Below, piece after piece: positions 7,370 through 41,648 of a stretch of 64,000 bases of DNA. The stretch comes from an uncultured Candidatus Bathyarchaeia archaeon (GTDB lineage: Archaea > Thermoproteota > Bathyarchaeia > RBG-16-48-13 > GCA-020345945), in the NCBI GenBank assembly GCA_964596985.1, contig CAZQWG010000001.1:396977-460976 (forward strand), given 5' to 3'. The notes below the pieces were generated by a model. It had not been told where the DNA came from. It was given only the letters and a program-made list of their open reading frames with translations, and did no database searches. The stretch's first letter is position 1, and each line of letters begins with the position of its first letter. The position numbers and the translations under genes are program-made.

Positions 7370-7482
7370 TTGTGTCCGCGCATATGAGGCTGATTAAGGG
7401 GCGGATAAAGGTTTAAGTATCGTTTACGCAACCCCTTCTATGACGGTGTCATAGGAGTGGCTGCCGCGGACAAGGACTTAGA

Positions 7483-8004
7483 GTGAAGAATCTGAAACGA
7501 AGAATCGGAATAATCATCATCGTCATCTCTCTGTCGGTTGCGATTGGAGCGATGTTATCAGACTTCGTCTCTGAGACGGAGAACCAAAAGAGGCTTGCAT
7601 CAGATTTTGCTCTCACGGACTTAGACGGAGAACCTTTCAACCTCGGTGACTTCCGGGGCAACGTTGTGGTCCTCGATTTTATGGCGACCTGGTGCGACCC
7701 CTGCAGAACACAGATCGATTACTATAGGCCTCTATGGGAGAAATATGGCGGCAAGATGTTTCTGATCTCGATCAGTATTGATCCCTCCTCAGACAAGGGG
7801 GAGGTCCTACACGAGTTCAGAGGTCGATTCCCTTTCGCGACTTGGATTTGGGCGGTTGACACCGAACAAGTCGGCAAACTCTACACCGTTTCATCGATAC
7901 CAACAACAATCTTAATCGACAAGGATGGGTTTCTAGTCCAAAGGTACATCGGGGTTACTGATTCTGAAACCCTGATCCGAGACGTAGAGCACCTGCTTAC
8001 CTAG
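7483..8004 (+). CDS. membrane-anchored TlpA/redoxin-family thiol:disulfide oxidoreductase
   Basis: N-terminal TM segment, then VVVLDFMATWCDPC (CxxC) in a thioredoxin-fold context. Confidence 0.75.
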   Translation: MKNLKRRIGIIIIVISLSVAIGAMLSDFVSETENQKRLASDFALTDLDGEPFNLGDFRGNVVVLDFMATWCDPCRTQIDYYRPLWEKYGGKMFLISISIDPSSDKGEVLHEFRGRFPFATWIWAVDTEQVGKLYTVSSIPTTILIDKDGFLVQRYIGVTDSETLIRDVEHLLT

Positions 8005-8096
8005 AAAGGAAGAGCTATCCGAGACCGCACTGCATGTAGTCTGAGTCCTATTCGTATCCCAAGGAGGACTGCGTTATCCCGCTCTCAACCATAATC

Positions 8097-8732
8097 TTGG
8101 CGTTTGCAGGAGGGTTTGCCTCGATGCTCTCGCCTTGCAGCCTACCCTTGCTCCCTGGACTTGTTTCGTACTACCTCGGAGAAGATTTTCCCACGAAGAA
8201 GGCGGTCATCCTTGGAGTGGCATGCTCATCGGGAACAGCATCCATTCTACTCCTTACAGGATTGATCGGATCACTGGTTGGCAGCCTCCTATTCAGGCTT
8301 ATACCTTTCTTCAAGATCCTCACTGGACTCACCGCCATCGTCCTCGGTCTTGCCTTACTTACCGGGAGGAGTACGCTCGTGTTTTCGCTTCCGACCAAGA
8401 CGGGAAGAAGGAAAGACCTAATCGGCATGTTCCTCTTCGGCGTTAGCTATGGTATGGTTTCACTGGAATGCTCTGCACCTGTTTTCCTATCGATGTTGCT
8501 CTACGCCTCTGCTTCAGGCATACCTCTCGAAATCGCTCTGGTAGTCATCGCGTACACGCTAGGAGCGGGGATTCCCTTAGTTATCGCATGCCTTCTTGTT
8601 GCAGAGACCAAGGGGTTGATTCTACGGTATGCTGAAGGATTCTCCAAATATCTCCCCGGGATAGGCGGGGCGGCCATGGTAGGTGTAGGAGTCTACCTCA
8701 TACTACTGGGCATCTCGGGTTACAGCGAATAA
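8097..8732 (+). CDS. ccdA: cytochrome c biogenesis CcdA/DsbD-type transmembrane electron transporter
   Basis: Polytopic membrane protein with SPCSLPLLPG and a second SLECSAPV Cys motif. It sits adjacent to the TlpA-like gene. Confidence 0.75.
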   Translation: MAFAGGFASMLSPCSLPLLPGLVSYYLGEDFPTKKAVILGVACSSGTASILLLTGLIGSLVGSLLFRLIPFFKILTGLTAIVLGLALLTGRSTLVFSLPTKTGRRKDLIGMFLFGVSYGMVSLECSAPVFLSMLLYASASGIPLEIALVVIAYTLGAGIPLVIACLLVAETKGLILRYAEGFSKYLPGIGGAAMVGVGVYLILLGISGYSE

Positions 8733-32574: not shown

Positions 32575-33816
32575 ATGAGGATTCCTTACACAGAAGATAT
32601 TCAGGTATCTCGGGGCAGATTCATCATAGTTGCAAGCCTGATATCGAACTCCATTTCTTGGTACTACCTAATGGCTAACTACTTGGAATTGCTCCTGACC
32701 GACCCGAATCTTCCTTTCGACTACCTGCGGAATGAGACTATCCTTGCGAGTTTCCTTTTCTCAATACCTCTTTCGTCCATGATTGCAGAAATCATATTGG
32801 CAAGGGTCAAAACGAAAACCATTCTATTTTATTGGATTATTGTTGACATTGCTACATTGCTGTTGCCTAACCTTTTCAGATTAAGAGCCAACATTGAATT
32901 TTTGGTCTTCGCTGTATTGTTGGGTTTTTCTATCGGGTTCGGTTTTCCTCGATGTCTCACATACTTCAGTGATTCTACTTCAATGGAAGAGAGAGGACGC
33001 GTAGGAGGAATCATAATTTTCTTGACGTATGTTTTGACCCCCTTGATTCTTGCGGCAACTCAAAGTCTTGATTCTTCGGTACGTCTAATAGTATATTCGG
33101 GGTGGAGAGGACTAGGACTCGCTACAATACCCTTCATTGGGACGGCTGCATACAGCGAGCCGGTAGAGAATGCAACAACTGATAGATTACGAACCCCACA
33201 ATGGAGAAGACTCATCCTCTACCTTATTCCTTGGATGGCTTTCAGTCTTATTGATGGCGTAGACACACAGATCCTCAAGAATATCTATCCACAAGAGAAG
33301 TTTGAAATGGGGAGAATGCTGGCCTATATAACTGGTAGTTTTTCCGCGATATTAGGCGGAGTGGCAATAGATCTTATTGGTCGTCGGACAAGCATAATCT
33401 TTGCCATGGTTACTCTTGGTCTGGGATTCATTGCCGTGAGCCTAGCTCAAGCTTCCTTGGCATCATGGCTGGCATTCTGGATTGCTGAGGGTATTGCATG
33501 GGGTGTCTTATCCATCACATACGTCTTAGTCATTTGGGGGGACCTTGGATCAAAGGATGATATGGGGAAATACTATGCAATTGGAACGATCCCCTTTTTT
33601 CTCTCTCGGGCTCTAGGATTCGTTCTCAAACCTAAGTTTTCCCAATTCTCTTCAACACATCTTTTTTCAATAGTCATTCTTCTAAACTTTCTAGCAGTGA
33701 TTCCCCTACTTTTTGCAGAAGAGGTTCTGCCATCGAAGACTAGAGAGCAGAGAAAAATGAGGGAATATATAAGAAGTGCCAAACGGCTGGTGGAACAAGA
33801 CAAGGGGGGGAGTTAG
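32575..33816 (+). CDS. MFS-type transporter
   Basis: About 12 predicted TM segments with an MFS-like organisation. The start is taken at ATG 32575; the listed ORF starts at TTG 32554. Confidence 0.7.
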   Translation: MRIPYTEDIQVSRGRFIIVASLISNSISWYYLMANYLELLLTDPNLPFDYLRNETILASFLFSIPLSSMIAEIILARVKTKTILFYWIIVDIATLLLPNLFRLRANIEFLVFAVLLGFSIGFGFPRCLTYFSDSTSMEERGRVGGIIIFLTYVLTPLILAATQSLDSSVRLIVYSGWRGLGLATIPFIGTAAYSEPVENATTDRLRTPQWRRLILYLIPWMAFSLIDGVDTQILKNIYPQEKFEMGRMLAYITGSFSAILGGVAIDLIGRRTSIIFAMVTLGLGFIAVSLAQASLASWLAFWIAEGIAWGVLSITYVLVIWGDLGSKDDMGKYYAIGTIPFFLSRALGFVLKPKFSQFSSTHLFSIVILLNFLAVIPLLFAEEVLPSKTREQRKMREYIRSAKRLVEQDKGGS

Positions 33817-34583
33817 AACTTCTCGAGTTTCTCAACGACCGATGTCAAGTGCTTCACAATCGGATGGCTCGGGTGTTGCTGGACAAAGATCGACTCCCCA
33901 ACAAGAGAGAGGACGTCACAGCTACAAGGGATAGCCTCGATTACAGGGAACCTGAAGATCGAACCGAATTTCTTCACTGTTCGAGGGTCGACGTCTATCG
34001 AGGGTCCCCCCGTAGGCACCTTGTTGATTATGATTCCCGTCTTTCGTTCGAGGGTCTCATAGACCCCCTTTATCAATTCCGAGGTCCCTTCGACATCGCC
34101 TCTGTCAGGCGTTGTGACAAGCACGGCAACATCCGAGCTTATGATAGCGTTGACCGAGGAGTACTGAAATCCTGGACTCGTATCGAATATGACATAATCC
34201 ACCTCAAATTTCTTGGACAGGGTCTCTAAGGAATTGTTGATTAGACGAAGAGATTTCATCTGCCACTTTCTGTCTCTCGTTACAATTTCGCTTATTCCCT
34301 CGGTTGAAGGGTCTGCGAGTCCAACATAGAGCCTACCTGGAAGAGAGAGTTCTTCGGTAGCGTCGGAGATGGATGCGCCGATCTCGCATCGTCCATCCAA
34401 GAGGTCATTCAGCGAGAAATTGGCTCTGTCAACGTTGAAGAAGGAGTGGAGACTCGGGGCCCGGAAGTCGAAGTCAAGCAGACACACATTGCGTCCTTTC
34501 TTGGCGTAGAGGACGGCTAGATTCGTCGAGATGAATGTCTTCCCTGTTCCACCTTTGTAAGAATGGAATGCAAATGATTTCAA
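33813..34583 (-). CDS. ParA/MinD-family P-loop ATPase
   Basis: Deviant Walker A SYKGGTGKT, LLDFDFRAPS and FDTSPG. It starts 7 nt downstream of a wHTH gene. Confidence 0.85.
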   Translation of the reverse strand: MKSFAFHSYKGGTGKTFISTNLAVLYAKKGRNVCLLDFDFRAPSLHSFFNVDRANFSLNDLLDGRCEIGASISDATEELSLPGRLYVGLADPSTEGISEIVTRDRKWQMKSLRLINNSLETLSKKFEVDYVIFDTSPGFQYSSVNAIISSDVAVLVTTPDRGDVEGTSELIKGVYETLERKTGIIINKVPTGGPSIDVDPRTVKKFGSIFRFPVIEAIPCSCDVLSLVGESIFVQQHPSHPIVKHLTSVVEKLEKF

Positions 34584-34590
34584 TCTCTAC

Positions 34591-34977
34591 TCACTTCTCC
34601 ACGCGGAAATAGACATCCCTGCCTTTCCGCCTTTTTGTGACGTATCTCATCGTGTAGAGCTGGTTCAAGTAACCGCTCTCGACGGCTCTAGCCCTCCCAG
34701 TCTTCTCTGCAATCTGTTCGGCGGTCGCTTCGCCTTCCTTGCACAGCATCATCGCTGTCTTTCTGAGATGATCAGGAAGGGAGAGAAGGGTAACGACATC
34801 AAGCGGATAGTCCTTGAGATCTCCTGCCTCGATATAGTCTGATTTCCCCGACTCAAGACTGGAAAGTATCTCATCCTGTTTCTTGGAGAGCTTACCTAGA
34901 TTGCGATCAATCCTCTTCAGGCTCTCACTAATTTCTTCAAGGAGGTCCATCACATTGTCCTTTTGTCTCGTTCCCAT
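34591..34977 (-). CDS. coiled-coil + winged-helix DNA-binding protein (paralog 1)
   Basis: 128 aa. The C-terminal LLSLPDHLRKT..GEATAEQIAEKTGRARAVESGYLNQLYTMRYV..RKGR..YF is shared with 35181..35576. Confidence 0.6.
   Translation of the reverse strand: MGTRQKDNVMDLLEEISESLKRIDRNLGKLSKKQDEILSSLESGKSDYIEAGDLKDYPLDVVTLLSLPDHLRKTAMMLCKEGEATAEQIAEKTGRARAVESGYLNQLYTMRYVTKRRKGRDVYFRVEK
34640..34703 (-). repeat. 64-nt segment 62/64 identical to 35245-35308 inside the two wHTH paralogs
   Basis: Direct nucleotide comparison finds mismatches only at positions 15 and 48. The flanking coding sequence is much more diverged. Confidence 0.85.
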
Positions 34978-35180
34978 GTCCTCGACCAGACTTCCATCGA
35001 TAATGAATGAGGTCCTCGCCTAGGTTCCAATGAACTTATGTATTTAAGTTGAACTTATAAACTAAACTCAATCCCCGCACTAGCACAATCTCTCCGCTTT
35101 GAATCCTTTTTAATGCAAATGGCGGTCAGCAGAGAAGAAACTCGTTGAGCGAGATCCCTAATCAAAGCCAAAAGGGGGAC

Positions 35181-35576
35181 CTAATTACCTAAACAACAGT
35201 TGTGGACAGAAAAGTGGACAGAGCGGCCTTTCCGTTTCTTCTTAACGTATCTCATCGTATAGAGCTGGTTCAAGTAACCGCTCTCGACGGCCCTAGCCCT
35301 CCCAGTCTCTTTCGCGATTTCAGCAGCAGTCGCCTCCCCCCTTCCACGTAGTGCAATCACCGTTTTTCTAAGGTGATCCGGAAGAGAGAGAAGGGTATAG
35401 ATATCAGTCGAAGACATACCATCGACTTCGGCCTTGCCGGGAAGCAGAGCATCAGCCTCAGCTCTTTGAGGGGAGGCATATTGAGTATTGACAAGGTCAT
35501 CGATTCGATTGTCTAATCTTCTAAGGGTTTCTCGAATTTCCAGAAGAAGCAAAGGAAGTGAATCAGCGGTTCTCAT
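35181..35576 (-). CDS. coiled-coil + winged-helix DNA-binding protein (paralog 2)
   Basis: 131 aa with the same C-terminal wHTH module. The N-terminal halves have diverged. Confidence 0.6.
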   Translation of the reverse strand: MRTADSLPLLLLEIRETLRRLDNRIDDLVNTQYASPQRAEADALLPGKAEVDGMSSTDIYTLLSLPDHLRKTVIALRGRGEATAAEIAKETGRARAVESGYLNQLYTMRYVKKKRKGRSVHFSVHNCCLGN

Positions 35577-35753: not shown

Positions 35754-36884
35754 CTACCACTCCAATTTCATCTGCTCAAGTCTTTCACTCTTCCCAGTCT
35801 CCAAGAATTCTCTTATCATTCCTGAAATGCTCTCTCCTACTCCAGGAATCGTTTTCAGCTCATTCTTCTTGTGCAGGTGTCGAATGCTCTGATCAAGCTT
35901 CTCAATGTTCTGGGCAGCCTTGTGATACGCCCAAGCAGCGTAAGTGTTCCCGGTCCTCATTTCCTTGAAGTAGGCGTAGAGCAAGAGCAGATTGGCGATG
36001 TCAAAATTCTCTCTCAAAGGCTTGTCGAAATTCGGTGGGGTAATATGCAATGGAATTTCGTATTCTTTGGACAGCGCGAAGAGCTTTCTGTTCATGTTGA
36101 CTACGTACTGACCGTTTGGACTCTGCGAATCACCGTAAAGCCTTTCATACTTCTCCATGAGATGCGGCCAGTTCTCCTTTAGAAGTCCAAGGAAACGGAT
36201 CTTCTGATTGCTTCTAAGAGTCATGCTTCCCGGAAGGATGTACTGGGCCTCGCTTTCGGAAGCCTGTCCAATCACGTCTCGCATATTCTCTTCGTTATCA
36301 CAGATGTAGGGTATGATGGGTGTGAAATCAACACCCGACCGAATGCCTAGACCCGATAATCTTCGAACGACTCCGAACCTCTTTTCCGGTGGTGGAGCAA
36401 AGGGCTCCAAGAAGGGAACCAGATTCTTGTCCTGTGTTATGATGGTGACAGAGACCGTGCACCACGAATTCCTCGATATCTCAGACAGGATATCTGCATC
36501 TCTCAGTATCAGATCCGATTTGGTGACTATGTGAACAGGAAAGCAGTGGTCCCTCATTATCTCAAGAATCCTTCTCGTAATTCTGTACTTCTTTTCGGCG
36601 GGTTGGTAGGCATCCGTCACACCTCCTAGCGAAATCACGTCCCTCTCCGCTGTCTTGAGTTCCCTCTCAAGCAGTTCTGGCGCGTTTGCCTTGACGTATA
36701 TTATCCTCGAGAAGTCCTCCCAGTCTTTGTGCACCAGATACTTCTCGGTGATGGCGTCGCAGTAGTTGCAGGCGAATTGGCATCCCCGGTAGGGGTTTAC
36801 GCTGTATCTACACCAGAACCAGTTGTCGCGGTATTTGTGCCTGTTCAGAACCTTCTTTGCTTTCAGTTCTCTGTATTCGACCAT
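35754..36884 (-). CDS. radical SAM protein (SplB / DNA-repair-photolyase-like, COG1533 type) fused to a PolX 8-kDa-like HhH domain
   Basis: The CQFACNYC cluster motif is near the N-terminus. The C-terminal ~110 aa (..AWAYHKAAQNIEKL..LKTIPGVGESISGMIREFLETGKSERLEQ) resembles the N-terminal 8-kDa domain of family X polymerases. Confidence 0.75.
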   Translation of the reverse strand: MVEYRELKAKKVLNRHKYRDNWFWCRYSVNPYRGCQFACNYCDAITEKYLVHKDWEDFSRIIYVKANAPELLERELKTAERDVISLGGVTDAYQPAEKKYRITRRILEIMRDHCFPVHIVTKSDLILRDADILSEISRNSWCTVSVTIITQDKNLVPFLEPFAPPPEKRFGVVRRLSGLGIRSGVDFTPIIPYICDNEENMRDVIGQASESEAQYILPGSMTLRSNQKIRFLGLLKENWPHLMEKYERLYGDSQSPNGQYVVNMNRKLFALSKEYEIPLHITPPNFDKPLRENFDIANLLLLYAYFKEMRTGNTYAAWAYHKAAQNIEKLDQSIRHLHKKNELKTIPGVGESISGMIREFLETGKSERLEQMKLEW

Positions 36885-37079
36885 TGTGAGACCGTTCCAA
36901 GTATCTGCGTCGGGCTTTTTGCTCTTTAGCTATCTGATAAGGGCGGTGATTTATGCTGCTGCACTTGAAATGGAAAGGAAAGGGGAGACTTCAGAATCTT
37001 TTTTGAAGGACATATGATTGTCAATATAGAAATGATCTATTATTGGTAGTAGTACAGATACTGACAAGGTGGATAACAT

Positions 37080-37571
37080 TTGGGAGATAGGGAACCGGAG
37101 ATTTCTGGTCATATAGAGATTAGTGGTAAGGGGCGCCTCGATTTCCAAGGCAATACAGACGAGGTAATGAGTGCTATTCTGAGATTCTTGTCTGAGATCT
37201 ATCCTGCCTACAAGGTTGTCTCTGATATTACAATCAGTCTGGATCTTGAAGAACTGATGCGGGTTTTGAAGGGATTTGTTGGCGTATCCGATGAGGGGGT
37301 GGTGATCCTGAGGACGGATCTATCTGCCGATATGGCGATTATGCTTTGCCTAGTTGGATCTTACGTTTCGAATAGAATTGGAAAAGCAGATAAGTCAACG
37401 TTGACGACCGCCGATATTGCCAAGCTGGTTGGAAAAGCCGCCAAGACGATAAGAAACGAGATGCCAAGTCTGCTGAGGAAAGGATGGATAGACCGCGTTG
37501 AAAGAGGAGAGTATAGGGCTACAACGAATGGTATCGTACAGTTGCAAGACAAGATTCGATCAGGATTCTAA
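37080..37571 (+). CDS. small protein with an N-terminal beta-rich module and a C-terminal wHTH (trio member A)
   Basis: HIEISGKGRLDFQGNTDEVMSAIL at the N-terminus and LTTADIAKLVG..LLRKGWIDRVERGEY at the C-terminus. The TTG start is uncertain. Confidence 0.5.
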   Translation: MGDREPEISGHIEISGKGRLDFQGNTDEVMSAILRFLSEIYPAYKVVSDITISLDLEELMRVLKGFVGVSDEGVVILRTDLSADMAIMLCLVGSYVSNRIGKADKSTLTTADIAKLVGKAAKTIRNEMPSLLRKGWIDRVERGEYRATTNGIVQLQDKIRSGF

Positions 37572-37583
37572 GGAGTAGATGGT

Positions 37584-38027
37584 ATGACGGAAGAACGTTT
37601 CTCGATGAGGGTGCGGATTGGGAACTGCGAGATCGAACTGGACGGAAAGAAAGATGAGGTTATGGCAACTCTAGATGAATTGCCTAGGATCGTGGAAATG
37701 GTTTCCAAGAGTTTCAAGATTGCTGGAAAGGAGAATGTTAGAATCGCTCCAATGGAAGACGAACTCAAACAGATCACGCTTGTTGAATCGCCGGAGATGA
37801 TCCCGACCATTCCCAAGCCATCAGGGCCGTCGGACGCGATAATAAAACTGCTATCGACAGAATGGGGAAGAAAGCCTCGTACCTGGCAAGAAATCAATGA
37901 AGCGCTAGTGACAAACGCGATCTACTATTCGAAAGGGTCGATTACAGGTACCTTGACGAATTTGACAAAGAAGAATAAGTTACGCAGAATAAGAACAGAG
38001 CAGGGATATGGCTACGTTCTAGCATAG
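37584..38027 (+). CDS. small protein with an N-terminal beta-rich module and a C-terminal wHTH (trio member B)
   Basis: MRVRIGNCEIELDGKKDEVMATL at the N-terminus and WQEINEAL..TGTLTNLTKKNKLRRI..GYGYVLA at the C-terminus. Confidence 0.5.
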   Translation: MTEERFSMRVRIGNCEIELDGKKDEVMATLDELPRIVEMVSKSFKIAGKENVRIAPMEDELKQITLVESPEMIPTIPKPSGPSDAIIKLLSTEWGRKPRTWQEINEALVTNAIYYSKGSITGTLTNLTKKNKLRRIRTEQGYGYVLA

Positions 38028-38102
38028 CATATGTCCAATCTTTGGAGAATTACCGTCCATACGGTAATGTAGGTGACTACCCCTGATGATCGATAGACTG
38101 CA

Positions 38103-38474
38103 TCAAGGCGGGGGTCTTTTTTGGACGTAGTGGTATTGTCGTGCTCCTCCTTGCCTAGTGAGCACTCCTTCCCTCACCAAGTCTACTAAGGTATGTGCGA
38201 CTGCTGTGCGGTCGTAGTGGTAGCCTTGTCGTGCCATCTCCTCGTGTACTTCTCCCAGGTTTCTAGATACGGAGAACCAACCTTCTTCCCAAAGCTCTGT
38301 GATTATCGTCTTGCAAGTCTGTTTCTTTGGGATAGTTTTCTGCGATTTTGAGATGTTGGATATCTTGGACAACGTCTCGCTCTGTTTTTGAAGCGCGGTT
38401 ACTAAATCCTCTACAGCTGACTGTAGTTGGGATTCTTCACACTCGATCTCAGCTTCGACTTCCCCGATCGTCAT
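38103..38474 (-). CDS. small protein with an N-terminal beta-rich module and a C-terminal wHTH (trio member C)
   Basis: The start is taken at the internal M (MTIGEVEAEIECEES). The C-terminus reads LGEVHEEM..VAHTLVDLVREGVLTR..QYHYVQK. It is divergent from the NurA-like gene. Confidence 0.5.
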   Translation of the reverse strand: MTIGEVEAEIECEESQLQSAVEDLVTALQKQSETLSKISNISKSQKTIPKKQTCKTIITELWEEGWFSVSRNLGEVHEEMARQGYHYDRTAVAHTLVDLVREGVLTRQGGARQYHYVQKRPPP

Positions 38475-38521
38475 CTTCAATCTGATCGGGGGTTTCTTCG
38501 ACAACGGACATGCCTCTATTG

Positions 38522-38611
38522 AATTGTGCAATATAATTGTGCAACACAACACTTAAATAGGCTCTCTCTGTTGTCATATTGTTGAATTGCACAATAAAAG
38601 CATTGTGTGCA
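38522..38611. promoter_or_regulatory. cluster of AATTGTGCAA-type repeats in the divergent promoter between trio member C and the NurA-like gene
   Basis: There are direct copies at 38522-38531 and 38535-38544, an inverted copy TTGCACAAT at 38587-38595, and a related ATTGTGTGCA at 38602-38611. Confidence 0.5.
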
Positions 38612-38622
38612 GGTGAGTCGAC

Positions 38623-39720
38623 ATGCAGGAGATAGGACATGTCTTTGAGTGTGATTTCAGCAACCAAGAATTCGAAGAGTTCGCCAGCCTCGCACGCATG
38701 TCCATTGAACACGCGGACAGGAACCTGAGCATAGACTATCCAGAGCCATCATGGAACCCCCTCACGAAACGGCATACCAGCAAGACCGAGACTAGCCTGA
38801 ACGAGCATAGAACCAGATACCTTACCGCAATCAAACTCAACCCTGTCAAGGACGGGTCACCCGTAGTAGCAGTCGACGTCTCCATACTCGGTCTAGGAGA
38901 AACCCAGTCAGGCACCATCTACGCGATCCGAGGGACAGCGGTCTCCAGGAAGGACGGGAGATACCAGTACAGCCGGCTAGGTCCCTTCCTTTTCCACATC
39001 AACGGCGACAACAACAGAAACATCGATGGAACCCCAACAGTCCGCTACCCGATACCGTCGGTGGATGCAAGAAAGCTGGGAGGACCATACGTGTACAGAG
39101 GGTTGTTGACCGTCTTCGAGACTATGCTGCGCGAGAAGGTGGCGAAGAAGTACAGTGGTGCCATCGTTCTCTGGGACGGGTCGCTCTCCATTCTCGCCAT
39201 GGAGGAGGAGATTAGAGCGAACAGACTGTTACTGGAGCTGGCGAGAGAAAGAGGAAACAGGATTGTAGGACTCTCGAAGAAGACGTACCTCTTCTCTCCT
39301 CAAGGGACTAAAGACCCCCTGAGGAAACACGCTGGACCGTGCCTGATCGACATCGATTGCGCAGTCCAGCGAACTAGAAGACTTCTCCTCTTGGGCAGAG
39401 TCTACGTCGCAAAGCTTGCCCGCAACGGACTCTCGTTTCGATTGGATGTCGACAAGGAAATCCCCAAGGCAGAGAGAATATCGACCGTAGAGAAGATGAT
39501 CGGGAACGATCTCACCAGAGACGGATACCCCGAGACCCTTCGCCTGGCCCACATATTCTCCAAGTTCAACGCAACAGAAGTGATCGGTATGCACCGATTC
39601 CTCGACGAGAACTACGGTCTCAGGGTCCTCGAGTACCCGAGTATCCGACAGATACTCTTCGGACCGTTCGCAGGACCCCACTCGAAGGAGCCAGACGCAA
39701 ACCATGTTAAACCTGTATAA
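38623..39720 (+). CDS. NurA-like nuclease
   Basis: VVAVDVS, IVLWDGSL, IVGLSKK and GYPETLRLAH match the conserved NurA-domain acidic/His motifs. Confidence 0.7.
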   Translation: MQEIGHVFECDFSNQEFEEFASLARMSIEHADRNLSIDYPEPSWNPLTKRHTSKTETSLNEHRTRYLTAIKLNPVKDGSPVVAVDVSILGLGETQSGTIYAIRGTAVSRKDGRYQYSRLGPFLFHINGDNNRNIDGTPTVRYPIPSVDARKLGGPYVYRGLLTVFETMLREKVAKKYSGAIVLWDGSLSILAMEEEIRANRLLLELARERGNRIVGLSKKTYLFSPQGTKDPLRKHAGPCLIDIDCAVQRTRRLLLLGRVYVAKLARNGLSFRLDVDKEIPKAERISTVEKMIGNDLTRDGYPETLRLAHIFSKFNATEVIGMHRFLDENYGLRVLEYPSIRQILFGPFAGPHSKEPDANHVKPV

Positions 39721-41206
39721 GATCGAGAACGGGGAGGTACAGATCATCAGCTGCCCTCCTCAAGGAATACGCAAGGGAGACTATCTCTCGATCGAAGACA
39801 CCTCGACCAAGAAGAGTCTGATCATACAGGTTGTAGAGATAGACTACGCGAACGTACCAGGCATACTCGAAGACATCCTACGAAGATCATCGATCCGCAA
39901 GGTGAACGGAGAGGATTTCGATCCTCTGGAAGTCAGGTCGTACGTCGAACTCGTCAAAGACGCAAAGGTTCTACGATGCAGGATACGAGGAGCCCTAGTA
40001 GAAGGCAAGTTCACGGACGACGTCTCCTGGATACCGGTAAGATCCAAATCAAGGGTGATCGGCATCCCGGATGAGACACTCCTCAAACTGATCAGCTCGG
40101 ACCAGCCCTTACCGATACATCTTGGGAAGACGCGTAAGAACGTGAACGTAGAAATCGACGCGAGAGCGATAGATGCCGGCCTCAACATAATCTCGGGTAA
40201 GAAGGGAACAGGAAAATCAAACCTCTCGAAAAACATGCTTCTCGGGCTGATGAGTCAGGGAGGTATCTGTCTCGTCTTCGATATCAACGGCGAGTATACT
40301 AGGCTAGGCTTCAAGTCCACCGGCGAGAAGAATCAACACTACGAAAGGATAAGAGTCCTAACTCCGGGCTTGAATTTCAAGACCGACCTGAAGTACGCTG
40401 GGCTGGGAAGCATTCTCTCGATAATGCGGTCGGTCATGGACACCCCTGGAACCTCAACGTGGGAGTTTCGACGCATCTGGAAGGAACTTGAGAGAAGAGG
40501 CGAGATATCTATCGGAAAGATCTTCAGGTCAATCGATGCGGTCAACCACGAATACGTCAGAGACGCCCTCTTCCGCAGGTTTCAAAGCCTGGTAGACACA
40601 GGGTTCTTCACTGACGACCCCAAGTCCACCACGGCCTTCGAGAGACTGTTCACCGAGATAGCTGGGGGAGGAACGATCGTCCTGGATATGAAGGATCTGC
40701 CTCCTATGGTTCGGAAGATCGTCGTCGAATTCGTTCTGAGCAAACTCTACCAGTTGCTGAAACGCCAGATAGTGAGAGCAGTATTCCTCTTTGCAGAAGA
40801 AGCCCACCTCTACCTCAGAGACACCTACTGGGAAGACATAGTAACCAGGATGAGGCACCTAGGGGTCTTCGTCACCTTCGTGACCAACCAGCCGGAGACC
40901 ATAAACCAGAACATCTTTCGGCAATCGGACAACATCTTCCTGTTCAACTTCACGAACGAGAACGACCTGAAGTCGATCTCCAGAGCCTCAAGAATAGACA
41001 CCTACACGATAGAGTCCATCACCCGAGAACTCCCGGCTTACCATTGTCTAGTATTCGGAAAAGTGACTAGAGACCTGCCACTCGTCGTCGGGATAGACCG
41101 GCTGGATGTCCAAACGCAGGGCGAAACCAGGTTCTTCTTTTCACCACCAGAAGACCACGCCAAATTGAAGACAGCGCCGATAAGCCCATACAACGCAACC
41201 GCTTGA
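39704..41206 (+). CDS. HerA-like (DUF87-type) ATPase, short form
   Basis: Barrel-like N-terminus, Walker A GKKGTGKS and Walker B VFLFAEEAH. It overlaps the NurA-like gene by 17 nt. Confidence 0.8.
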   Translation: MLNLYKIENGEVQIISCPPQGIRKGDYLSIEDTSTKKSLIIQVVEIDYANVPGILEDILRRSSIRKVNGEDFDPLEVRSYVELVKDAKVLRCRIRGALVEGKFTDDVSWIPVRSKSRVIGIPDETLLKLISSDQPLPIHLGKTRKNVNVEIDARAIDAGLNIISGKKGTGKSNLSKNMLLGLMSQGGICLVFDINGEYTRLGFKSTGEKNQHYERIRVLTPGLNFKTDLKYAGLGSILSIMRSVMDTPGTSTWEFRRIWKELERRGEISIGKIFRSIDAVNHEYVRDALFRRFQSLVDTGFFTDDPKSTTAFERLFTEIAGGGTIVLDMKDLPPMVRKIVVEFVLSKLYQLLKRQIVRAVFLFAEEAHLYLRDTYWEDIVTRMRHLGVFVTFVTNQPETINQNIFRQSDNIFLFNFTNENDLKSISRASRIDTYTIESITRELPAYHCLVFGKVTRDLPLVVGIDRLDVQTQGETRFFFSPPEDHAKLKTAPISPYNATA

Positions 41207-41327
41207 CGCTGCCATGGTTCAGAGAAAGAGTCTGAAGAAACTTCTGTCGACGAACTCGGCGTGGAAAACAAGCGTCGGAGAACCCCAAGAGATAAGTATC
41301 ACACTAAGGCAGAAGGGTACGACGAAG

Positions 41328-41648
41328 ATGGGAAAGAAGAAGGTTCTGTCGGAGGAAGACATGGCCAAGAGGCTTTACATCCCTTCAGAAGGCCAGGTTC
41401 TCGGTCGAGTCGTCCAACAGCTCGGATACGACCGCTTCAGGGTTCGCTGCCAAGACGGGGAAGAAAGGACTGTAAGGATTCGGGGCAAGCTGAAGCGGAG
41501 AGCCTGGACTAGGGTCGGCGACTGGGTTCTTGTGGAGCCTTGGGACTTCCAATCCGACCGCGGAAACATACTGTGGAGATATACGAGAGGCCAAGTTGAA
41601 CTCCTGAGGAGCAGGGGTTATATTCGGCAAGGAGGCTCGGAATCCTAA
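41328..41648 (+). CDS. eif1a: translation initiation factor aIF-1A
   Basis: S1-like OB core: GQVLGRVVQQLGYDRFRVRCQDGEERTVRIRGKLKRRAWTRVGDWVLVEPW. The start is taken at ATG 41328 (MGKKK). Confidence 0.85.
   Translation: MGKKKVLSEEDMAKRLYIPSEGQVLGRVVQQLGYDRFRVRCQDGEERTVRIRGKLKRRAWTRVGDWVLVEPWDFQSDRGNILWRYTRGQVELLRSRGYIRQGGSES

Follow-up and report, generated by a model that had tools for sequence, protein, structure and literature searches.

The 64-kb stretch of a Bathyarchaeia archaeon genome analyzed here, to which we refer as a whole as the window, contains a gene for a NurA-like nuclease that overlaps a gene for a HerA-like ATPase, and directly upstream of the pair, three genes for small winged helix-turn-helix (wHTH) proteins, here called wB1, wB2, and wB3. 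We consider it probable that nurA and herA encode a divergent HerA–NurA machine for DNA end processing that is widely conserved and apparently inherited vertically, and that wB3 serves as its dedicated wHTH regulator, and wB1 and wB2 as co-regulators or partners. The cluster has the appearance of a core module for regulated DNA processing, not that of a mobile defense island. Direct observations are the protein folds, the linkage of the genes, the intact catalytic motifs, the conserved intergenic DNA, and the paralogy of the wB proteins. The features of the cluster are as follows:

37080–37571, plus strand: wB1, a wHTH protein of 163 amino acids (open reading frame [ORF] list; family hidden Markov model [HMM] E 1e-50)
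37584–38027, plus strand: wB2, a wHTH protein of 147 amino acids (ORF list; hhalign)
38103–38504 (ORF limit 38552), minus strand: wB3, a wHTH protein of ~133 amino acids (start taken from orthologues)
38505–38622, no strand: divergent control region between wB3 and nurA, with putative promoter and operator roles
38623–39720, plus strand: NurA-like nuclease of 365 amino acids with an RNase H-like fold
39704–41206, plus strand: HerA-like ATPase of the FtsK/HerA superfamily, 500 amino acids, with a DUF87 domain

The ORFs and motifs listed in an earlier note on this DNA are all present (AVDVS, WDGSL, GLSKK, and GYPETLRLAH in the nuclease; GKKGTGKS and LFAEEAH in the ATPase). So is the 17-nt overlap of the nurA and herA reading frames, taken from the ORF list, which suggests translational coupling.

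A search of the GTDB species, each represented by one genome, found relatives of the HerA-like protein in at least 324 species genomes, and all named homologues belong to Candidatus Bathyarchaeota/Bathyarchaeia. From the species scan, 80 loci were kept with flanks of up to ±10 kb (locus counts are given on 83), and these were Bathyarchaeia with the exception of three records titled otherwise (L041 and L065 as bacterial, L070 as Thermoproteota). L041 (DATKLC010000078.1, Krumholzibacteriaceae) and L065 (DATHCJ010000002.1, Limnocylindrales) carry a typical wB3–nurA–herA cluster with the conserved intergenic DNA, and the two contigs are probably mis-binned archaeal DNA. Carriers of the cluster include the closed Bathyarchaeia chromosomes CP070773.1, CP070659.1, CP070759.1, CP070828.1, CP070679.1, CP070649.1, and CP070765.1. 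The gene order is highly stable: in 80 of the 83 loci, herA follows nurA directly, and the other three loci are truncated. Among the 74 loci in which 1.7 kb or more of sequence is available upstream, 72 have a wB-family gene immediately upstream of nurA, the gene missing only in L002 and L067, and in 62 the neighbor of nurA is a divergent wB3 orthologue (phmmer E 1e-37 to 1e-48). The comparison of neighborhoods proposed in the earlier note thus bears out the co-occurrence of wHTH genes with nurA–herA. Most genomes have three or four wB paralogs, and at least three wB genes were found in 28 of the 45 loci whose upstream sequence extends over 9 kb or more. The usual order is GatD, GatE, (x), a wB2-type gene, two wB1-type genes, a variable insert, wB3 divergent from nurA–herA, and a convergent Nudix gene. 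The neighbors of the cluster are housekeeping genes, namely GatD/GatE upstream and Nudix downstream, and in the window's clade eIF1A and AFOR. The Nudix hydrolase (~149 amino acids) follows herA directly in convergent orientation in 40 of the 83 loci (e.g., L009 6169–6609), and the window has eIF1A instead; the linkage may be functional or plain synteny. No relatives of the pair were found among the viral contigs of IMG/VR.

The HerA-like protein matches the Pfam model DUF87, the central domain of HerA, with an E value of 1.7e-9, and the same model is matched by all 16 members of the HerA-like family. Its Walker A (GKKGTGKS) and Walker B (FLFAEEAH) motifs, together with many further motifs, are invariant over the 16 members, and FLFAEEAH aligns with IIAVIEEAH of S. 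solfataricus HerA. The latter is also the closest relative of solved structure (4d2i), found at E 8e-10 with the single sequence and at 1.2e-13 with the family profile over residues 120–473; the profile matches the other HerA types less well, TdpA at 4e-3 and Sir2-associated HerA at 9e-9. The earlier note had called the ATPase short, a description that does not hold, as 500 amino acids is the very length of S. solfataricus HerA.

The evidence for the nuclease comes largely from its predicted fold and its conserved residues. With the Pfam NurA model, the window protein scores 20.2 bits, below the cut-off of 21, and 18 of 31 family members match the model, the best with an E value of 2.8e-9; NCBI annotation already names some family members NurA. 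An AlphaFold2 (AF2) model of the protein (predicted template modeling [TM] score 0.74) has S. solfataricus NurA as its top Foldseek match (2ygk, E 3.7e-9) and TdpB of the TdpAB defense complex as second best (TM 0.55), with further matches to the NurA structures of T. kodakarensis, P. furiosus, and D. radiodurans (9x1l_G, 3tal, and 7f6d_G). EndoV and PIWI domains come after the NurA structures in the list, as expected for the superfamily. Residues D85, E166, D185, and H310 are invariant in the 31 NurA-like sequences, and their order matches the catalytic set D51, E105, D126, and H411 of P. furiosus NurA (PMC3300031), the E-to-D spacing being 19 versus 21; the equivalence is by motif order, without superposition, and we regard the four as putative catalytic residues. 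Given the sequence and fold matches to HerA and NurA and the conservation of motifs and residues, both enzymes look catalytically competent.

The three wB proteins are paralogous over their full length (hhalign E 1e-8 for wB1–wB2, 8.6e-7 for wB1–wB3, and 3.8e-13 for wB2–wB3). wB1 has a beta-hairpin/helix domain at its N terminus and a winged HTH at its C terminus, with weak Pfam matches to AbiEi_4 and TrmB, and its orthologues are found upstream of nurA in many loci. As wB2 begins 12 nt after wB1, the two are probably co-transcribed. In the closest relative, L001, an extra 930 bp between wB2 and wB3 (7468–8396) holds an ORF of 194 amino acids, which has no wB HMM match and is missing from the window. 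The ORF of wB3 is open to a GTG at 38552, and the orthologues start just before KPPIRVKMKIG; judged from these, translation most likely begins with the TTG at 38504 and yields a protein of 133 amino acids starting with MSKKPPIRLKMTIG. This is the most conserved of the wB paralogs. The window protein is ~55% identical to its main-clade orthologues, compared with ~36% for NurA. The wB3 family has 3319 database matches; among the 120 listed, 11 are named, all as hypothetical proteins from metagenome-assembled genomes of the Bathyarchaeia lineage, and no Pfam domain was found in family members among the matches listed. In the AF2 model of wB3, an N-terminal beta-hairpin and a long helix are joined by a disordered linker to a three-helix wHTH at the C terminus (predicted local distance difference test scores 81–89). 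Generic Pfam wHTH matches are weak: Penicillinase_R just reaches its cut-off with 22.6 bits, and both AbiEi_4 and TrmB fall short of theirs. A fold search with the model gave nothing significant, as RTP, Fur, ZapA, and Lsr2-N appeared at E > 1 and are not evidence of relatedness; the predicted three-helix wHTH of wB3 cannot be assigned to a named regulator family.

The TTG of wB3 and the ATG of nurA are 118 bp apart, and the DNA between them holds several sequence elements:

38523–38531, plus strand: ATTGTGCAA, first copy
38536–38544, plus strand: ATTGTGCAA, second copy
38587–38595, minus strand: ATTGTGCAA, third copy, inverted
38552–38559, read on the minus strand: TATA-like CTTAAATA, for wB3
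~25 nt upstream of the nurA ATG: A/T-rich AATAAAAG

The three copies within 73 bp (38523–38595) are the only ones in the 64-kb window, where 0.16 would be expected by chance, and none of 100 shuffles reached three; the repeat-rich divergent promoter described in the earlier note is therefore real. The wB3–nurA intergenic DNA is strongly conserved over ~60 species. In the relatives, a palindrome TTGTGCAT-N7-ATGCACAA abuts a TTAAATA box, which on the minus strand is likely the TATA box of wB3, and TTGGTGA direct repeats are present as well. The occurrence of AAATATAATTTTCC ~25 nt before the nurA ATG suggests that the nurA transcript is leaderless. The half-site core TTGTGCA is common to the window clade and the main clade. 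Palindromes and repeats placed on two divergent promoters resemble the signature of an autoregulated repressor, for which wB3 would be the candidate. In L007, L008, and L044, where all wB genes are co-directional, three tandem TTAACGTT motifs by a TTTTTAAATA box precede the wB array and form a putative operator of a type other than TTGTGCA.

Taken together with the known biochemistry, these observations are consistent with a regulated machine acting on DNA ends. In characterized systems, a HerA hexamer and a NurA dimer form a mutually dependent helicase–nuclease, with duplex DNA threaded into the NurA channel (PMC3326311, PMC5715905, and PMC12977600). By analogy, we infer complex formation and substrate for the Bathyarchaeial pair: the HerA hexamer would pump duplex DNA into the NurA dimer, where a strand would be degraded, and the role of the pair would be DNA end resection or the processing of broken or stalled DNA. 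Binding and repression by wB3 would follow a simple scheme in which the protein binds the TTGTGCA-type repeats over both divergent promoters and represses its own gene and nurA–herA until some signal relieves the repression. wB1 and wB2, sharing the N-terminal beta-hairpin/helix module, would most likely act as co-regulators or partners via mixed oligomers with wB3. The earlier note had proposed a transcriptionally regulated DNA-processing module, and the conserved operator-like region and the linkage of the wB genes fit that proposal.

The same note had stressed the absence of Mre11 and Rad50, and indeed a motif scan, which is a heuristic and not an HMM search, found no Mre11- or Rad50-like ORF in the window or in the 83 loci up to ±10 kb; the longest ORF of the window has 622 amino acids. 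The linkage of herA and nurA to mre11–rad50 is a trait of (hyper)thermophiles (PMC3326311 and PMC2288612), and most archaeal genomes have multiple HerA–NurA operons (PMC2588523). Because the four-gene operon is a thermophile feature and stand-alone pairs work in Deinococcus, the lack of mre11–rad50 linkage is not anomalous. For the same reason, the claim that the cluster matches no described system was overstated: HerA–NurA operons without mre11–rad50 are documented, and some members of the present family carry the name NurA in NCBI.

Several observations weigh against this interpretation. In sequence, the two enzymes lie very far from canonical HerA and NurA. The NCBIfam HerA equivalogs NF040937 and NF040819, whose cut-offs are 800 and 970 bits, give scores of 33.6 and 30.3 bits, and judged by these scores the HerA-like protein belongs to a distinct, divergent subfamily below the canonical equivalog threshold. 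The Pfam HAS-barrel model is unmatched in the HerA-like proteins at E ≤ 0.01; over the N-terminal part, NCBIfam HerA_Thermprot gives a weak match that aligns residues 47–201 to model positions 34–183, and T. kodakarensis HerA aligns to residues 75–213. Sequence searches of the PDB with a single NurA-like sequence and with a profile of 31 sequences found no match. With divergence of this degree, the two cannot be called orthologues of the repair pair with confidence, and these genomes may contain a second herA/nurA pair of the canonical kind at another place; our literature search on a second canonical HerA/NurA or Mre11/Rad50 found nothing specific to Bathyarchaeia. On the side of regulation, three to four paralogous wHTH proteins exceed what a two-gene operon usually needs, and in 10 of the 74 loci, two to four wB genes form a co-directional array with nurA–herA, an arrangement that may point beyond mere regulation to a function in structure or targeting.

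The last two points lead to the alternative that fares best, a minor possibility in our view, according to which the wB proteins are mainly DNA-targeting or accessory subunits of a HerA-based pump, serving site or end recognition in place of Mre11–Rad50 or acting as centromere-like adaptors for chromosome segregation or resolution, an idea once put forward for archaeal HerA–NurA. The number of paralogs per genome and their near-obligatory linkage agree with this, as do the 10 loci where all wB genes and nurA–herA are arranged as one co-directional array and the higher identity of wB3 (~55%) than of NurA (~36%) to main-clade orthologues; furthermore, HerA lies within the FtsK–HerA superfamily of pumps, and HerA–NurA has been termed partition machinery (PMC2588523 and PMC12977600). 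A subunit role explains less well, however, why the conserved palindromes lie exactly on the wB3 and nurA promoters, the classic signature of an autoregulated repressor, or why the wB1/wB2-type genes are in many genomes 2–7 kb from nurA with unrelated genes between. The more specific idea that the wB paralogs are integral DNA-recognition subunits, a wHTH hetero-oligomer that would load or target a Bathyarchaeia-specific HerA–NurA and thereby replace Mre11–Rad50 or direct the pump to chromosomal sites, we consider rather unlikely.

Regulation of an end-processing pair by wB3 also has to be weighed against a function in defense. Anti-virus or anti-plasmid systems of the HerA-plus-effector type, such as TdpAB, Sir2–HerA, and DUF4297–HerA, could use wHTH proteins as sensors or regulators, and wHTH genes are frequent in defense loci. 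TdpB is the second-best fold match of the NurA-like model (TM 0.55), and the HerA-like protein weakly matches PADLOC mad8 (1.5e-15), HerA models (~1e-13), and anti-phage HerA structures. Yet the HerA matches in PADLOC are partial and weak, the NurA-like protein, wB2, and wB3 have no match there, and S. solfataricus HerA (1.2e-13) is a closer match of the HerA-like protein than either Sir2-associated HerA (9e-9) or TdpA (4e-3). No conserved dnd or other modification genes were seen nearby. Defense genes are typically patchy and located in variable islands, whereas at least 324 species have the pair, in a conserved housekeeping synteny, and no relatives of it were found in IMG/VR. With a distribution of this kind, housekeeping neighbors (GatD/E, Nudix, and eIF1A), no viral relatives, and only weak and generic PADLOC matches to HerA, the defense or element-maintenance function considered in the earlier note is not supported, and we regard defense as improbable.

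The genes flanking the cluster in the window are a mixed set:

33813–34583, minus strand: ParA/MinD-type ATPase of 256 amino acids (ORF list and profile searches)
34591–34977, minus strand: wA1, a small wHTH protein of 128 amino acids (ORF list and profile searches)
35181–35576, minus strand: wA2, a small wHTH protein of 131 amino acids (ORF list and profile searches)
35754–36884, minus strand: radical S-adenosylmethionine (SAM) protein (Rv2578c/PA0069 family) of 376 amino acids, with a PolX-like HHH_8 domain at the C terminus
41214–41648, plus strand: eIF1A, directly after herA

The ORF of eIF1A, listed as 144 amino acids, probably reaches too far at the 5′ end; its orthologue in L001 is called at 101. 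The radical-SAM gene belongs to the Rv2578c/PA0069 (“SplB-like”) family; profile searches confirmed both the Radical_SAM and the HHH_8 domain, and the fusion suggests a radical-SAM enzyme directed to DNA. The earlier note had counted this helix-hairpin-helix fusion as a member of the cluster, and here we differ: a phmmer search over the 83 loci found it in a single close relative, L001, and neither in L004 nor in the distant loci. A weak and unrelated radical-SAM gene lies downstream in L044 (phmmer). The note's trio of wHTH proteins is truly paralogous by hhalign, as described above, but the area contains five small wHTH genes, of which two (34591–35576) belong to the unrelated wA family. wA1 and wA2 are paralogous to each other and their C-terminal domains resemble Csa3/ArsR; we found no homology of the wA family to the wB family. 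ParA is directly downstream of wA1, and the two look like a small partition-type pair. We rejected ParA, wA1, and wA2 as parts of the module, since they were found in the window and L004 only and wA is not homologous to wB.

The two relatives L001 and L004 also delimit the variable DNA. Their HerA proteins are 88% and 81% identical to that of the window, with a nucleotide identity of 70–72% for L004, and among relatives at 70–80% nucleotide identity, the radical-SAM and the ParA/wHTH genes come and go. The window segment 31248–35744 (4.5 kb; polyprenyl synthase, MFS transporter, ParA, wA1, and wA2) has a G+C content of 0.43–0.47 compared with ~0.52, is missing from L001, and is partly present in L004; it may be an insertion. 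As both the radical-SAM gene and this segment vary among L001 and L004, the region upstream of wB1 is a rearrangement hot spot, next to which the block from wB1 through wB2, wB3, and nurA to herA is constant in both, with its core conserved across the class. The low G+C content of the segment and its absence from L001 could point to an integrated mobile element, of which the cluster would be a remnant or a maintenance module and ParA, small DNA-binding proteins, nuclease/ATPase, and radical-SAM the cargo, but this is very improbable, as the variable segment stops before the constant wB1–herA block, the G+C content at 38–42 kb equals the genome average, and no integrase or viral relatives were seen.

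Bathyarchaeia are abundant and almost wholly uncultured archaea of sediments. How recombinational repair starts in archaea beyond the thermophile models, and what HerA–NurA does without linkage to Mre11–Rad50, are poorly understood, and the cluster provides a testable handle on both, with a very divergent pair having intact catalytic motifs, a wHTH family linked to it in ~97% of loci, and a conserved putative operator. If the wB proteins are regulators, they would constitute a lineage-specific circuit over a potentially dangerous nuclease, possibly responding to DNA damage; if they are more than regulators, they would represent an undescribed way of targeting a DNA pump of the HerA family.

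Among known systems, the archaeal HerA–NurA end-resection complex of S. solfataricus, P. furiosus, and T. kodakarensis (4d2i, 2ygk, 3tal, and 9x1l) is the closest. The two share adjacent and overlapping genes, an ATPase of ~500 amino acids with Walker A and an EEAH Walker B, and an RNase H-like NurA with the D-E-D-H set, and the complex provides the best sequence and structure matches of the window pair. They differ in that the window pair scores only ~30 bits with the NCBIfam HerA equivalogs and falls under the Pfam threshold for NurA. In contrast to the canonical operon, the window has the order nurA then herA, mre11–rad50 are found neither in the window nor within ±10 kb in the 83 loci, and the Bathyarchaeial pair has dedicated wHTH paralogs, three or four in number, and a conserved putative operator, for which we found no report in the canonical operon. 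The NurA–HerA of Deinococcus–Thermus (7f6d) is similarly a stand-alone pair without linkage to Mre11–Rad50 (PMC12977600 and PMC9960219), and the NurA model matches 7f6d_G; however, that pair comes from another lineage, has no known wHTH partners of the wB type, and is related at the level of fold only. TdpAB, with its HerA-like TdpA and NurA-like TdpB (8wet/8wfd), is alike in its two-protein architecture, whereas TdpA is a weaker match than S. solfataricus HerA, the Bathyarchaeial pair is widespread within its class and syntenic instead of patchy, and no DNA-modification genes were seen with it. A precedent for a wHTH regulator of herA/nurA transcription is Csa3a, acting on nurA–rad50–mre11–herA in Sulfolobus islandicus (PMC5587795). 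Csa3a is a CARF-domain, CRISPR-associated global regulator encoded elsewhere, whereas the wB genes adjoin the operon and their products have another N-terminal domain and unrelated sequence. HerA–NurA itself is thus known, and what is new here is its association with a dedicated, uncharacterized family of wHTH paralogs and a conserved putative operator.

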